Assembly: GCA_965248435.1 (NCBI GenBank)
Contig: OZ252100.1
Coordinates: 1,248,001-1,312,000 of the forward strand
DNA from: Candidatus Latescibacterota bacterium
Lineage (GTDB): Bacteria > Latescibacterota > UBA2968 > GCA-2709665
DNA length: 64,000 nt
Direction of reading: 5' to 3'
Positions 12,901-25,593 of the stretch are shown in pieces. Positions within the stretch are counted from its first letter, which is position 1; each line of letters starts with the position of its first letter. Position numbers and translations under genes: made by a program. Under the pieces are notes generated by a model. The model was not told where the DNA came from. It was given only the letters and a program-made list of their open reading frames with translations, and searched no databases.

Positions 12901-14448
12901 TCACACTAATCTAGATGACGCTACCCGGTCCCCGAAATTGACCCTGCTCTTTCCCCGAAGGCGGGGATGGGTCGACCTCACCTTCCTTCCCAGGGAAATC
13001 CTCTTGAAATTTGGGATATTTTCAACCTTGCCTGTTCCCACGAGGTCTATATGTTGTCCCCTGAAGTTTTGCCTGTCGTAAAGTCGGTAGAACTTGCCCT
13101 GCGGAATCTGAAACCTGCCAGAAGATAGGCCCCGGTCGATCGGCCCTCCGTGTACGTTCAGATCCTCATAGTTGGAGAATTCTGCCCGATTCGCCAGATC
13201 CCGAATACTCAGGCGGCGGCTCTTGAAATCGCTGTCTTCGTAGAGGTCCATCCAGGAGTCCCGAAGATTGTCAATATCAGGTAAAACGGGATCCGGCTCA
13301 GGACGAAACTCGGTCAAGCGGAGAATCGAATTGTACTGCCAGTAGTAGGTCGAGTAGAGCCTCAGAACCCCCGAAGGATCTATGTACGTCCCACCCCCGG
13401 CAGCGAAATGGAATTGAAAGTGGGGGTTTGGAAACGGTTTGTTCGCAACCTTCCTGAGCGCGGGGGGACTCAACGCCGCCGGGGAACCGAAAATTCCGTC
13501 CCTGAAGTCCACTTCATACAGCTCCGCTATGTCCTTCCCTAAGGACACGAATCTTGTATTATAGGTCCCGACGAGAAACAGTCTGTAGTTCGACGCCGAG
13601 TCCTTTTGGACGATGAAGTTCGTGTTCTGAAACTTCCCGAAACCCTCCAGTTGGCCACTAGGTACCGTCCACGTCACCTTGCCTCTAGTATCGAACCCGT
13701 CGAGGATATTCGCCGTATTGGATAGATAGAAGTCGAACCTGGGAGGCAGATGCGCGTCACTGTCGCTCCAAACCGCTGCCAGAAGGTGGTTGCTCTGGGG
13801 AAGCTTGGTCAAGGCGACTGCGCCCGCTTTTACACCCGGCCTCACGATATCGACAGATCTCGCAAGTCTTTCAGGCCTCTCTGGGGTTCGAAAGTGGTAT
13901 AAAACAATCGATGACTCTACGCCTCCGGAATCTGCGGTGCTGTAAACAGGAACGGCCAGCAGGTCGCCCGACACGCTGATTCCCCCGGCGTGCCATTTGC
14001 CGTTTGCCACTTTAACCACACCGATCATCCGGTCCAGCTTCTGAATCCTGCCGGATATCAGGTTGGATCTCCACGCCCCCCTGGCCTTAAGGGTATCCAT
14101 CTTCACGAGGAAGAGCTGAGATACATTGCTTTTTCGGTCACCTCCCGATATGACCAGGTATTTCCCCTGCCGCAGGCGCTGAACGCCCTGGAAATGAGTC
14201 AATCGATAATCGTTTGCCATCGCTTCGGTGTAGCGCCCGTTTGGTATCTGGTTATTGTCAAACAGCGCCAGGTAATCACCCCGATTGGTGATCGCCCTGA
14301 ACTTATCCCGGACACCCTCGACCGCGGGATTGCTGTCATTTATCTTTGTATACGGGTTGCTGCTGTTGCTGAGTGTTCCGGGAGTCACATAGACATAGTC
14401 GTCAGGCATTCGAGCCACCTCCGGCTGCGGGTCAATGTATCTTTTCAT
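12901..14448 (-). CDS. Hypothetical protein with C-terminal beta/gamma-crystallin-like domain (N-terminus possibly a beta-propeller)
   Basis: C-terminal Greek-key motifs LYEDSDFKS, LYDRQNFRG, FGDRVASSRL; beta-rich N-terminus with HFQGVQR and HAGGI motifs. Confidence 0.6.
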   Translation of the reverse strand: MKRYIDPQPEVARMPDDYVYVTPGTLSNSSNPYTKINDSNPAVEGVRDKFRAITNRGDYLALFDNNQIPNGRYTEAMANDYRLTHFQGVQRLRQGKYLVISGGDRKSNVSQLFLVKMDTLKARGAWRSNLISGRIQKLDRMIGVVKVANGKWHAGGISVSGDLLAVPVYSTADSGGVESSIVLYHFRTPERPERLARSVDIVRPGVKAGAVALTKLPQSNHLLAAVWSDSDAHLPPRFDFYLSNTANILDGFDTRGKVTWTVPSGQLEGFGKFQNTNFIVQKDSASNYRLFLVGTYNTRFVSLGKDIAELYEVDFRDGIFGSPAALSPPALRKVANKPFPNPHFQFHFAAGGGTYIDPSGVLRLYSTYYWQYNSILRLTEFRPEPDPVLPDIDNLRDSWMDLYEDSDFKSRRLSIRDLANRAEFSNYEDLNVHGGPIDRGLSSGRFQIPQGKFYRLYDRQNFRGQHIDLVGTGKVENIPNFKRISLGRKVRSTHPRLRGKSRVNFGDRVASSRLV

Positions 14449-14521
14449 GGAAACATGAGATGAACAGCATCAAGTTGAGATACTGAGGCTCAAATCTCAG
14501 CTCATAAATGAGTTCACGCAT

Positions 14522-14662
14522 CATTTGTCTCATCCAGATGTTCCAGGATATGAGGGTAAACATCCTTCCACGCATTCTTCCCGTAAATGCAGTCGATGTG
14601 TCCATATTTCGGAATCACGAACCGCTTATAGAGTTCTTTGCCATTCCTTTCGCGCAGCAGGT
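14522..14662. repeat. 141-bp near-identical copy of the 3' end of the GMC oxidase gene (other copy 20078-20218)
   Basis: Direct comparison shows identity apart from two substitutions (aggatatgagggtaaac vs aggttatgaggataaac). Confidence 0.95.
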
Positions 14663-14700
14663 CATGGGTATTCACGTTGCTCATAGCCTTCTCTTCGGCG

Positions 14701-23498: not shown

Positions 23499-23604
23499 GA
23501 TTTCACCTGTTTAGAAACGAGCAAGAAACCTTGGCGTATGAGGTACACTCATGCCCGATTGACGGCGCATCATCAAACCTACTTTTCGAACGCCCACAGA
23601 AGGT

Positions 23605-23874
23605 CTACGAGTCTGCAAGCTCTAAGGTTGATTCAAGGGGGGGTGTGTCGCGCTCTCTGGCGATCAGATCTCTGTCTTTATCTTTGACCTGGACGACAAT
23701 TTTGTGATTGTGCCTATCAATATTAACTTGAGAGAAATTGTCCTCTTGCGTGAAGTTGTACGCACAGTAATCCATGGCAACGCCGCCGTCTAACGCAAAG
23801 CTGTCTCCCCCTTTCTTGGAATCATGGACATAATTCGAAGGCTCGCCATCGGCGAAGGGGAAGGGCCAGAACAA
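23605..23874 (-). pseudogene. Orphan C-terminal fragment of a PhoD-family protein
   Basis: FWPFPFADGEPSNYVHDS...MDY.AYNFTQEDNF resembles, from recall, the C-terminus of PhoD-family proteins; no N-terminal catalytic part present. Confidence 0.55.
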
Positions 23875-23922
23875 TTCCGTCGTGCAAAACGCGTGTAAAC
23901 CCTCCCTCTCTTCGCAACGGGC

Positions 23923-25593
23923 TCAAAGAAGCTGCCGCTTTCTGAGGTTGCCCTGAACTTTACTGGCGGCAAAGCGAGCAACAAGGGTCGAGAGAAGGAG
24001 CACAAGTGGGGTTAGTAGCATCGTCTTCGTAATCCCGATCGTCTGAACGCCAAGCTTGGGCAGCAGCCGAAGGGCCCTTCGATACACATGAAGCTGAAGC
24101 CGTGCAAGCGCCCATCTGCTGTAGCGAGGCCACTCGCGAAGCTTCTGTTCCTGGCTTGCTTTACCTATGAGAGGAATAATTCGGCGGAAGGGCGTCCCGT
24201 CTTTTTCGAAGCTGTGAGCTTCATCCAATTCGTCGGAATTCCTCGAGTCGTTCCACACCTTGAAAATCGGATTGCGGGCGTCTTTAGGAATGGCAAAATG
24301 TTGGTCCAGAAAGCGCTGGCAGTTCCGCCGTCCCAACTGGTAATCGTGCTCTCTGAAGGCTTTCGAAAGAAATCCGCCAAAGCCGCAGAGGCTTCCGCTG
24401 GCAATGGGGTATTGCTCGTCCTCCCGCTTCGGCGTGATGAGGAACCGGCTGTAGACGTCCTCCTCTTGTGCCAACTTGAGCTCGTCGAGTTTGAACACGG
24501 CCTGGTTGAGAAGCGAGTCTACGAGACCCTTGGCTGCGCTGACGATGTCAACCTTGGTTTCGGAATTCCACGAAAAGGGGTGGACGTCAGGAAACGGATC
24601 CACCATAATCACGGCACGTTTAGCCTTCTCAGGCTCCCGCGGGTTGGTGCCGTCTTTACCAGCCAGCGCCCGATGTGCAAAGCCGAAAGGTTCGTTGTTC
24701 AGAACACCGCCATCCATGGCCACGAATGGTAGCTCCCCACTAGCCGGGGGCTTCCCTTTGGGCCAATAGGGCGCGATCCTACGGTATTCGATAAAGTGTC
24801 GCCTCTTTCCTTTTTCCTTTGCCTTCGCCTCTTCCTTTTTCTCTTCCTTTTCTCGCCCTGGCATTCGCCAAGGGCGATCGTCATAGGCCTCCTTGTTTTT
24901 CGACAGAACCCGAGGTGCCAAGCCGAGTGGAAAGGCCCCAGTGGCAATAGTAGCCTTCTTGAGTGCGTGCCAATTCTTGTGATCGAGTTTGAACGGTTGG
25001 ATAACGACTGCGTCGGAGGGTGTTTCCTCAGCTGAGTTTGTCAAGATGAAATAAGTGTAGTCGGCGTGCAGCGACATGCCGTGACCAGGTTCCTCACTCC
25101 CTGCGAAGGGGACGTTGTAGGGTATGCCACGTACATTTGTGACTGTAAGGTAAATGTGCAGAGGATCTGACACCCAGGGAGGGAAGGTCTTTACGTCAGA
25201 AAGTTCAAAGACTTCATCGGCAATCTCCTCAATTTTCGTGGAATCGAAGACCGATTTTGCTACAGCGTGCCTCCCGGCCAGGTCGCGGGATTGAAGCAGA
25301 TCGACGATGTCGATCTCCTCTACCCATTTCTTCCTTAGCTGGGACGTCTCGTGACCCCGTGCTGCGGCCATCATACCAGCTGCAATCCCGCCGCCAGATG
25401 AGCCCGAAAGCACACGGATTACGACACGATGGGGCGGGCAAAGGGGATTTTTGCACTTGCGAGCCTTTTCCCATTCGCTGAGCGCCTCAAGAAGAAAGTC
25501 AACTACGCCGGCTGTGTAGGCGCCTGCCGATATGGTCCCCGCCATCACCAACGCGATTTCGAACGTTGGGATATTCTCGTCAGATTGGGACAT
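23923..25593 (-). CDS. Patatin-like phospholipase with C-terminal hydrophobic helix
   Basis: AGTISAGAYTAGV, GSSGG nucleophile, ATGAFP, MDGG..NNEP; hydrophobic TMLLTPLVLLLSTLVARFAA near the C-terminus. Confidence 0.88.
   Translation of the reverse strand: MSQSDENIPTFEIALVMAGTISAGAYTAGVVDFLLEALSEWEKARKCKNPLCPPHRVVIRVLSGSSGGGIAAGMMAAARGHETSQLRKKWVEEIDIVDLLQSRDLAGRHAVAKSVFDSTKIEEIADEVFELSDVKTFPPWVSDPLHIYLTVTNVRGIPYNVPFAGSEEPGHGMSLHADYTYFILTNSAEETPSDAVVIQPFKLDHKNWHALKKATIATGAFPLGLAPRVLSKNKEAYDDRPWRMPGREKEEKKEEAKAKEKGKRRHFIEYRRIAPYWPKGKPPASGELPFVAMDGGVLNNEPFGFAHRALAGKDGTNPREPEKAKRAVIMVDPFPDVHPFSWNSETKVDIVSAAKGLVDSLLNQAVFKLDELKLAQEEDVYSRFLITPKREDEQYPIASGSLCGFGGFLSKAFREHDYQLGRRNCQRFLDQHFAIPKDARNPIFKVWNDSRNSDELDEAHSFEKDGTPFRRIIPLIGKASQEQKLREWPRYSRWALARLQLHVYRRALRLLPKLGVQTIGITKTMLLTPLVLLLSTLVARFAASKVQGNLRKRQLL

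Follow-up and report, generated by a model that had tools for sequence, protein, structure and literature searches.

A co-oriented run of predicted lipid-acting genes in a hypervariable island of a Latescibacterota genome

Patatin-fold phospholipases can act within the bacterial cell, and CapV of CBASS (cyclic-oligonucleotide-based antiphage signaling system) is known as a cytoplasmic patatin effector. Among other described relatives of the proteins considered here, the class I cholesterol oxidase ChoA is secreted, PhoD is exported by the Tat pathway, and the NLP (NPP1) proteins are cytolysins. In this study, we analyzed a stretch of 64,000 nucleotides (nt) from a Latescibacterota genome (contig OZ252100.1, positions 1,248,001-1,312,000 of the forward strand), which is hereafter called the window and in whose positions all coordinates are given. 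Seven open reading frames (ORFs), named P1 to P7, follow one another at 12901-25593, all on the minus strand; six are intact and one (P4) is broken. A preliminary description made from the sequence alone had listed seven consecutive minus-strand genes here, which the ORF coordinates bear out, and had regarded them as a candidate system for defense or lipid signaling. The host genome comprises 5.67 Mb in two contigs, with 97.5% completeness and a GC content of 0.566.

We lean towards the explanation that P1-P7 are rare, individually mobile genes for cytoplasmic lipid-acting proteins, gathered once by piecemeal accretion in this hypervariable island, and not a conserved system. The family assignments and catalytic motifs, the lack of export signals, of conserved synteny and of defense signatures, and the mosaic structure of the island are observed; what the enzymes act on, and whether they cooperate, is inferred. 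In the order of transcription the genes are as follows (lengths in amino acids, aa).

23923-25593, minus strand: P7, 556 aa, patatin-like lipase with a C-terminal hydrophobic helix
20073-23498, minus strand: P6, 1141 aa, GMC flavoprotein fused to a middle domain and an alpha/beta hydrolase
18841-20001, minus strand: P5, 386 aa, Vps62-family protein with an NLP-like fold
17870-18620, minus strand: P4, class-2/PGAP1-like lipase gene, broken
16339-17832, minus strand: P3, 497 aa, divergent PhoD-like metallophosphoesterase without a Tat signal
14701-16236, minus strand: P2, 511 aa, patatin/cPLA2-like lipase
14522-14682, minus strand: remnant of the P6 3′ end, a 161-nt direct repeat of 20078-20238 with 94% identity
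12901-14448, minus strand: P1, 515 aa (502 aa from Met14), beta-propeller with a beta/gamma-crystallin-like C-terminal domain

Distribution of the gene families and structure of the island

The preliminary description anticipated that a set of patatin, GMC-hydrolase, PhoD, cPLA2 and Vps62-like genes might recur, and our neighborhood searches found this set nowhere else. When the 12.7-kb DNA was compared with 30 relatives, only pieces of P6 and P5 matched, in 4 of the 30, and the genome of the same genus gave no match. A protein search of 150 other Latescibacterota genomes detected full-length P6 in three (G014, G016 and G030), two weak matches to P1, one weak match each to P7 and P3, and none to P2; no two of these five occurred together in any of the 150. 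The numbers were similarly low in 151 Acidobacteriota genomes, where a match was found in four genomes for P1-like, three for P6-like, two each for P2-like and P5-like, one for P3-like and none for P7-like proteins. Only one of the 151 (G295) has two of the families as neighbors, P3-like and P6-like, and in G156 a P1-like and a P5-like gene lie on separate contigs. Loci were also inspected from the side of single families. Nine P5-type loci with flanks of up to 10 kb contained none of the other six families, and five of the nine genomes had no P6 relative anywhere. None of the other six was present in 80 P2-type metagenome loci either (821 kb in total, 36 loci being 10 kb or longer), and no neighbor family appeared in more than 9 of the 80. 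In all the genomes and loci surveyed, any three of the cluster families together were found nowhere else.

The composition of the run suggests a mosaic history. The GC content at third codon positions (GC3) is 0.65 for P1, 0.53 for P2, 0.72 for P3, 0.42 for P4, 0.55 for P5, 0.63 for P6 and 0.61 for P7; core genes range from 0.59 to 0.69, and several cluster genes (0.61-0.72) are near that. The 161-nt copy of the P6 3′ end begins 18 nt past the P2 stop codon and its translation is 90% identical to residues 1090-1140 of P6, so that the block P5-P4-P3-P2 is bracketed by two P6 3′ ends. Contigs assembled from public reads break exactly at both copies of the repeat, and the 106-nt piece they share has approximately 2x depth. 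Two histories would explain the repeat: the block was integrated through recombination at a piece of P6, or a second P6 copy was mostly lost.

The same read-derived contigs, from four public runs of one sample, reproduced 12000-26000 with 0 differences in the listed pieces, and one of them (5,510 nt) spans the P4 lipase gene. Because the sample is probably the source sample of the genome, this agreement excludes a slip in the present assembly and is not independent evidence.

The run belongs to a low-GC, hypervariable accessory stretch that covers approximately 1-30.7 kb of the window. Synteny with the genome of the same genus (G001) starts only at about 30772, and the flank of G001 at this point is unique to that genome as well; the region is a variable hotspot. 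No tRNA marks the island border. The stretch to the left of the run has a GC content of 0.47-0.49, and the nonribosomal peptide synthetase (NRPS) at 5502-12159 consists of two overlapping ORFs, the first condensation domain of which begins at profile position 209 of 456; judged from the sequence, the synthetase is probably truncated or frameshifted. The features around the run are the following.

868-12159, minus strand: remaining low-GC accessory stretch with DDE_3 transposase, unassigned ORF, ankyrin-repeat protein, ABC exporter and NRPS (by Pfam)
12115-12810, plus strand: weak SIR2-like remnant ORF outside the gene run, with matches of 14-19 bits to PADLOC SIR2 models
25963-26334, plus strand: small ORF with a TfoX_N domain (64 bits), divergent and upstream of P7

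The intergenic gaps from P7 to P1 are 424, 71, 226, 37, 102 and 252 nt. Among the ORFs of the window with a Pfam match or database relatives, 33 of 37 lie on the minus strand, and the co-orientation of P1-P7 is therefore unremarkable. A scan of the region for promoters and terminators gave counts at or below the shuffled expectation and is thus uninformative. As to regulation, the run was described as having no regulator, which is correct within the run itself; the divergent TfoX_N ORF just outside it is a possible regulator.

Repeats were also noticed beyond the run. Just downstream of a gene for a luciferase-like monooxygenase, 26671-26815 contains 4-5 tandem copies of a 29-nt unit, and this stretch has short matches at several places in G001. 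A 64-nt element at 35662-35725 occurs at more than 25 places in G001 with 84-90% identity and is probably a repeat of the genus resembling REP (repetitive extragenic palindromic) or MITE (miniature inverted-repeat transposable) elements.

Cellular location and features of the proteins

Inspection of the sequences by hand revealed neither a hydrophobic N-region nor a twin-arginine motif in the six intact proteins. Each start is preceded, at a distance of 1-8 codons, by a stop codon, which leaves no room for a longer, overlooked N-terminus. The earlier statement that none of the genes shows a Sec or Tat signal thus holds; however, the consensus N-termini of the P5, P2, P1 and P6 families are likewise signal-less, which makes the missing signal a trait of each whole family and not a peculiarity of the cluster. 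Since they are signal-less, the proteins probably act inside the cell, where they would be located in the cytoplasm or attached to the inner leaflet of the membrane. Co-orientation and the absence of signal peptides are background in this case, and together they are insufficient to count the set as a system. The labels given to the genes earlier stand in part: patatin for P7 and GMC/hydrolase fusion for P6 are confirmed, lipase is correct for a gene that is broken, and the PhoD, cPLA2 and crystallin matches are below threshold.

Links to other genes recur only around P6. It matched Pfam GMC_oxred_N (PF00732; 41.7 bits, cut-off 23) and GMC_oxred_C (PF05199; 48.6 bits, cut-off 24.6) as well as Abhydrolase_1. 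The best PDB sequence match of its N-terminal half was the Streptomyces cholesterol oxidase ChoA (1b4v, E 2.4e-23), and the C-terminal part matched gastric lipase (1k8q, E 1.9e-6) and lysosomal acid lipase (6v7n, E 5.5e-5). Against the cholesterol oxidase equivalog NF058674, P6 scored 156.1 bits, under the cut-off of 850 bits, and the database label "cholesterol oxidase" for this family is probably wrong. The family has more than 4095 relatives, and those listed are mostly 1131-1148 aa long and 59-75% identical to P6. Records of Caldithrix and KSB1 belong to the closest cluster, and relatives within the phylum are only 50-55% identical. In an alignment of 20 family members, C201, C204, C207 and C211 (CxxCxxCxxxC, in the GMC part) are invariant, as are H913-C914-x-G916 at the nucleophile elbow of the hydrolase, H1115 and D1117. 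We take this motif pattern to suggest a cytoplasmic flavo-iron-sulfur enzyme with a Cys-type hydrolase or acyltransferase. No publication on the GMC-hydrolase fusion family was found in the open-access literature searched.

Four of the seven P6-type loci, the window counted, adjoin another lipase or phosphoesterase, and the partners vary by locus. In the acidobacterial genome G295 (locus L106, 4776-15601), a P6 orthologue with 61% identity belongs to a tight, co-oriented run of six minus-strand genes, which encode a metallophosphoesterase-like ORF of 499 aa, a GMC oxidase, a FAD_binding_4 oxidase, the P6-like protein, an unassigned protein of 270 aa and a P3-like protein (38%). The P3-like gene is 1.1 kb from the P6 orthologue, the run is signal-less by eye, and it is a candidate for a cytoplasmic oxidative lipid pathway. 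In G173, a GMC oxidase like the N-terminal half of P6 (40%), a calcineurin-type Metallophos gene and an intact P4-like lipase gene (41%) are found within 5 kb. In the Latescibacterota genome G030 (locus L018, 4353-7986), the P6 orthologue faces an unrelated patatin gene; this patatin ORF has a region like the P6 middle domain, the next ORF is 55% identical to the P6 hydrolase domain, and an acetoacetate-decarboxylase-like gene adjoins this patatin/hydrolase module. The C-terminal module of P6 thus seems to combine with different lipid-acting heads. At the two remaining Latescibacterota loci (G016 and G014; L017 and L019), the P6 orthologues lie amid leucine-rich repeat (LRR) proteins of 950-1376 aa, and the locus in G282 has no obvious lipid partner. 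Because P6 is set among flavin oxidases and phosphoesterases, its links look metabolic and not defensive. The P6 relatives in G014 and G030 have internal stops.

Other islands of this bacterial family gave related observations. The variable islands of the host's family are rich in eukaryote-like repeat proteins (LRR and ankyrin; L017, L019 and L021), and in G007 (L021) a 963-aa ankyrin protein and a DDE_3 transposase are encoded next to a PhoD-like gene. In G094 (L020, 5497-10767), a patatin, an EEP phosphoesterase, an unassigned ORF and a P7-like patatin are co-oriented and adjoin a response regulator and a DSP-phosphatase of polymorphic-toxin type; the theme is analogous to that of the cluster and the genes are not orthologous.

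The two patatin-type genes were assigned by Pfam Patatin (PF01734), with 39.0 bits for P7 and 36.1 bits for P2 against a cut-off of 27.7. Both proteins have motifs of the G-x-S-x-G and D-G-G types, which read GSSGG and DGG in P7. P7 also matched TIGR03607 at 80 bits, far under the cut-off of 262, found no match in a PDB sequence search, and has a hydrophobic C-terminal stretch at approximately residues 519-545 according to hydropathy windows; it was the sole match when the whole genome was searched with Pfam Patatin. P2 scored 19.2 bits against PLA2_B (PF01735), and because this is below the cut-off of 23 we call it cPLA2-like and not a shown member, although some of its relatives carry a precomputed PF01735 assignment. 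Its PDB sequence match was to cPLA2-delta (5iz5, E 3.5e-5) over approximately 60 residues in the region of the oxyanion and nucleophile. The P2 family has 831 relatives, those listed mostly of about 500-540 aa; the records with a name belong to Anaerolineae, Myxococcota, Desulfobacterales, Acidobacteria, Pseudomonadota and Bacteroidota. The GGG-x-R, VSG and D-G-G columns are invariant in the family alignment. A scan of viral contigs found two distant P2 relatives with 24-28% identity on IMG/VR contigs (L109 and L110), one of which is named as a GVMAG record; the viral-contig scans found no relative of P6 or P5.

P5 itself has no Pfam match even at E<=5, neither to Vps62 nor to NPP1. Its earlier label, "Vps62/NPP1-like", may be read from its relatives, of which 2 of the 49 listed carry PF06101 (Vps62), and from the likeness of the modeled fold to NLP, and not from a Pfam match of its own. 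The predicted structure has a moderate pLDDT of 68 and a pTM of 0.78. When the model was compared by VIA-align with 48,161 representative PDB chains, the top two were NLP cytolysins, namely MpNEP2 (3st1; Z 8.8, root-mean-square deviation 3.5 over 176 residues) and PcNLP485 (9wsc; Z 8.8, 4.2 over 188 residues), and the next chain had Z 3.4. Foldseek returned no match at E<=0.001 and only weak NLP rows, and the P5 profile found none among PDB sequences at E<=1. H169, D172, W173 and D174 (H-x-x-D-W-D) are invariant in the family alignment. For Vps62-domain proteins of fungi, a likeness to the GHRHDWE cation-pocket motif of NLP is already in print (PMC13159263). In two of the nine P5-type loci (L012, 7976-11137, and L013, 7995-11137, both in metagenome-assembled genomes of Acidobacteriota), the P5-type gene directly follows a gene for a signal-less neutral/alkaline ceramidase, and in L010 an EEP-family phosphoesterase gene follows the P5-type gene. 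The adjacency to ceramidase makes a link of the Vps62/NLP-like genes to sphingolipids possible.

The first piece of P4 matched Abhydrolase_1, PGAP1 and Lipase_2 of Pfam. A frame change near 18305 and an in-frame TGA at 18074-18076 split the gene into three collinear pieces, and lipase sequence resumes after each break; an intact relative of 276 aa is encoded at locus L108. P3 scored 22.6 bits against PhoD (PF09423), under the cut-off of 27, and is PhoD-like by Atlas features, with a score of 0.98 to PhoD-like clusters. GD, DDHE and GDVH motifs were seen and no RR motif was, and the host genome has two better PhoD matches outside the cluster. The model of P1 (pLDDT 92, pTM 0.92) consists of a beta-propeller and an all-beta C-terminal domain. 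Foldseek returned only generic propellers for it, and the PDB sequence search gave no match for P1 or P3. The C-terminal domain of P1 matched one motif of Pfam Crystall (PF00030) at 15.7 bits (E 0.016, cut-off 25). At E<=1e-3 the P1 family has 659 representative relatives, and the Latescibacterota relatives are without the crystallin-like tail.

Weighing of the explanations

According to the accretion explanation, rare genes that move separately would accumulate in the low-GC hypervariable stretch, and some of them would decay. Cooperation may exist loosely around P6, in the form of lipid turnover from inside the cell. In that case acyl esters would be hydrolyzed by the patatins P7 and P2, by P4 before its breakage and by the Cys-type hydrolase domain of P6, and phosphoesters would be cleaved by P3; P6 may carry out an oxidation of a lipid alcohol that depends on flavin adenine dinucleotide and possibly on an iron-sulfur center. 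P5, with its NLP-like fold, and P1, with its propeller and crystallin-like domain, may be lipid- or cation-binding accessories or unrelated passengers. In parts, the preliminary interpretation agrees with this: an intracellular location, activity directed at lipids or phosphoesters for most members, and accessory DNA are all retained. The term "system" is not, given the lack of recurrence and 0 of 7 PADLOC assignments.

A role in storage-lipid lipolysis (triacylglycerol, wax or polyhydroxyalkanoate) was considered and rejected: PhaC_N had 0 matches in the genome while its positive control worked. WS_DGAT likewise gave 0 matches, but its control matched nowhere either, and this search is hence uninformative.

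Several points weigh against the accretion explanation. Each family is present in no more than about 3% of the sampled genomes, yet six of them are together here, a coherence beyond chance. The only two patatin-type genes of the genome, P7 and P2, lie 8 kb apart, so that selection for co-location, or a young lineage-specific module, is possible. Two proteins, a P5 relative (P0012, 46%) and a P6 relative (P0210, 63%), each come from a 34,605-bp ENA contig, which may be the same one. Loci were retrieved with two peptide patterns for each family from samples of approximately 150 genomes, so that rarer recurrences could escape, and signal peptides were judged by hand and not by SignalP. Finally, the island combines an NLP-like fold with a cPLA2-like enzyme and an ankyrin gene, and a role directed at foreign membranes would be in line with this as well.

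This last role leads to a different explanation, which we regard as rather unlikely: that the genes form a young, lineage-specific arsenal against the membranes of a eukaryotic host, a grazer or prey, released by lysis, by vesicles or by a type I exporter. P5 models as the Nep1-like cytolysin fold by the clear step from Z 8.8 to 3.4, P2 is closest to eukaryotic cPLA2 and has distant relatives on the two viral contigs, the one named as a GVMAG record included, and P6 resembles cholesterol oxidase in its N-terminal half and acid lipase in its C-terminal part. The island that holds them also has the ankyrin-repeat gene and the ABC exporter, and the relatives agree in the P6-like genes amid giant LRR proteins (G016, G014), the PhoD-like gene beside ankyrin and DDE_3 (G007), and the co-oriented patatin, EEP phosphoesterase, unassigned gene and second patatin of G094. 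In addition, eukaryotic-like proteins and ankyrin are mentioned for sponge-associated Latescibacterota (PMC12993501). However, the searches of the host genome detected no injection apparatus of the type III, IV or VI secretion or extracellular contractile kind that would suit injected effectors: TssC/VipB, VirB4 and the contractile phage sheath, each with a positive control, gave 0 matches, and the one full-length FHIPEP is probably flagellar. Moreover, the families are widespread in free-living phyla and signal-less throughout, P6 looks like a redox enzyme of the cytoplasm by its invariant Cys motif of Fe-S type, and the set does not recur.

It is improbable that the run is mostly non-functional cargo, that is, recent acquisitions in a decaying island with no role in the host. 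Decay is evident in the P4 lipase, the breaks of which are reproduced in read contigs, in the P6 remnant, the truncated NRPS and the SIR2-like remnant, and in the internal stops of the P6 relatives in G014 and G030. Nevertheless, the six other ORFs (386-1141 aa) have no interruptions and retain the invariant columns of their families, and the GC3 of several genes (0.61-0.72) is near that of the core genes (0.59-0.69).

Anti-phage defense or programmed self-lysis, in which cytoplasmic patatins and their partners dismantle the membrane on infection, appears very unlikely. The signal-less patatins, the membrane anchor of P7, the accessory DNA with a weak SIR2-like remnant adjoining and the precedent of CapV would be in line with it. 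The search results are against it. With PADLOC-DB 2.0 at E<=0.01, six of the seven proteins matched no family and P6 gave one match of 14.8 bits to a dinucleotide fold; PHROGs gave no meaningful match for the seven, P6 again matching only a dinucleotide fold (19.7 bits). Pfam, NCBIfam and PADLOC identified no cyclase-like (CD-NTase) ORF in 12000-27000, and the cluster contains no sensor, regulator or nucleotide-signal gene. The remnant beside the run (12115-12810) was correctly placed in accessory DNA by the preliminary description, and its SIR2 assignment amounts to PADLOC matches of 14-19 bits (E 2e-4 to 5e-3) on the opposite strand, with no Pfam or NCBIfam match. A test for enrichment next to defense genes had been suggested as well; PADLOC assigned 0 of 7 in the cluster, and around P2 relatives (15 loci) 6 of 146 neighboring ORFs matched at E<=1e-10, mostly to generic helicase/ATPase models. 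Pfam assignments for 182 ORFs show mainly genes of metabolism or housekeeping around the relatives. In the surveyed genomes and loci there is no recurrence of the set, no P6 or P5 relatives are on the viral contigs scanned, one member is broken, and the intergenic gaps are long. The proposal of a defense or self-lysis module, which had no PADLOC or meaningful PHROG match, no sensor and no recurrence in its favor, is therefore not supported. Similarly poor prospects attach to the idea that the genes were newly put together in this lineage as a module that dismantles membranes and serves programmed self-lysis or abortive infection, with a widespread but undescribed lipid-turnover pathway around P6 as its core; if it existed, its parts would be two cytoplasmic phospholipases, a phosphoesterase, a flavin/Fe-S oxidase-hydrolase, an intracellular lipid binder of NLP fold and a Ca2+-sensing propeller protein.

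Ca2+-linked intracellular lipid signaling, in which the crystallin-like domain would make P1 a Ca2+ sensor that controls the phospholipases, is the least credible, and the earlier suggestion to this effect is not supported: the two Greek-key-like motifs and D-x-x-x-S-S stretches in the P1 C-terminal domain, its sub-threshold Crystall match and the resemblance of H-x-x-D-W-D in P5 to the NLP cation-pocket heptapeptide (PMC13159263) are outweighed by P1 relatives that are never found with lipases (the G075 and G091 loci have 7TMR-DISM/SpoIIE and TonB-dependent receptor genes), by the different contigs of the P1-like and P5-like genes in G156, by the tail-less Latescibacterota relatives, and by the 252-nt gap with a gene remnant between P1 and P2.

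Comparison with known systems

The cluster is an accessory island of members of families already annotated in databases, and three of these families provide leads. The P6 family is very large, highly conserved and recurrently found beside phosphoesterases, lipases or patatins. The P5 group comprises bacterial, signal-less Vps62-family proteins that, in the predicted structure, take the fold of plant-killing NLP cytolysins. The P2 family consists of widespread cPLA2-like bacterial proteins, mostly of about 500-540 aa. Each of the three families offers a testable way into the turnover of lipids inside bacterial cells.

Compared with CBASS and its CapV effector, the cluster has in common a cytoplasmic patatin-fold phospholipase in accessory DNA; it differs in that a cyclase or sensor gene is absent, neither P7 nor P2 matches a PADLOC model, and the relatives occur alone in varied contexts. 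P3 is comparable to the Tat-exported PhoD by features and motifs, but its score is below the cut-off and it has no twin-arginine signal. P2 matches eukaryotic cPLA2 (5iz5) locally and keeps an invariant GGG-x-R, S and D-G-G, without a C2 domain. P5 is similar to the NLP/NPP1 cytolysins in its predicted fold (Z 8.8, at a moderate model confidence) and in its H-x-x-D-W-D, which resembles GHRHDWE, whereas NLPs have approximately 210-220 aa and P5 has 386 aa, no signal peptide and no NPP1 match at the sequence level. P6 and the secreted class I cholesterol oxidase ChoA (1b4v) have the GMC fold in common; unlike ChoA, P6 is signal-less, carries the CxxCxxCxxxC insert, and is fused to a middle domain and a Cys-elbow hydrolase.

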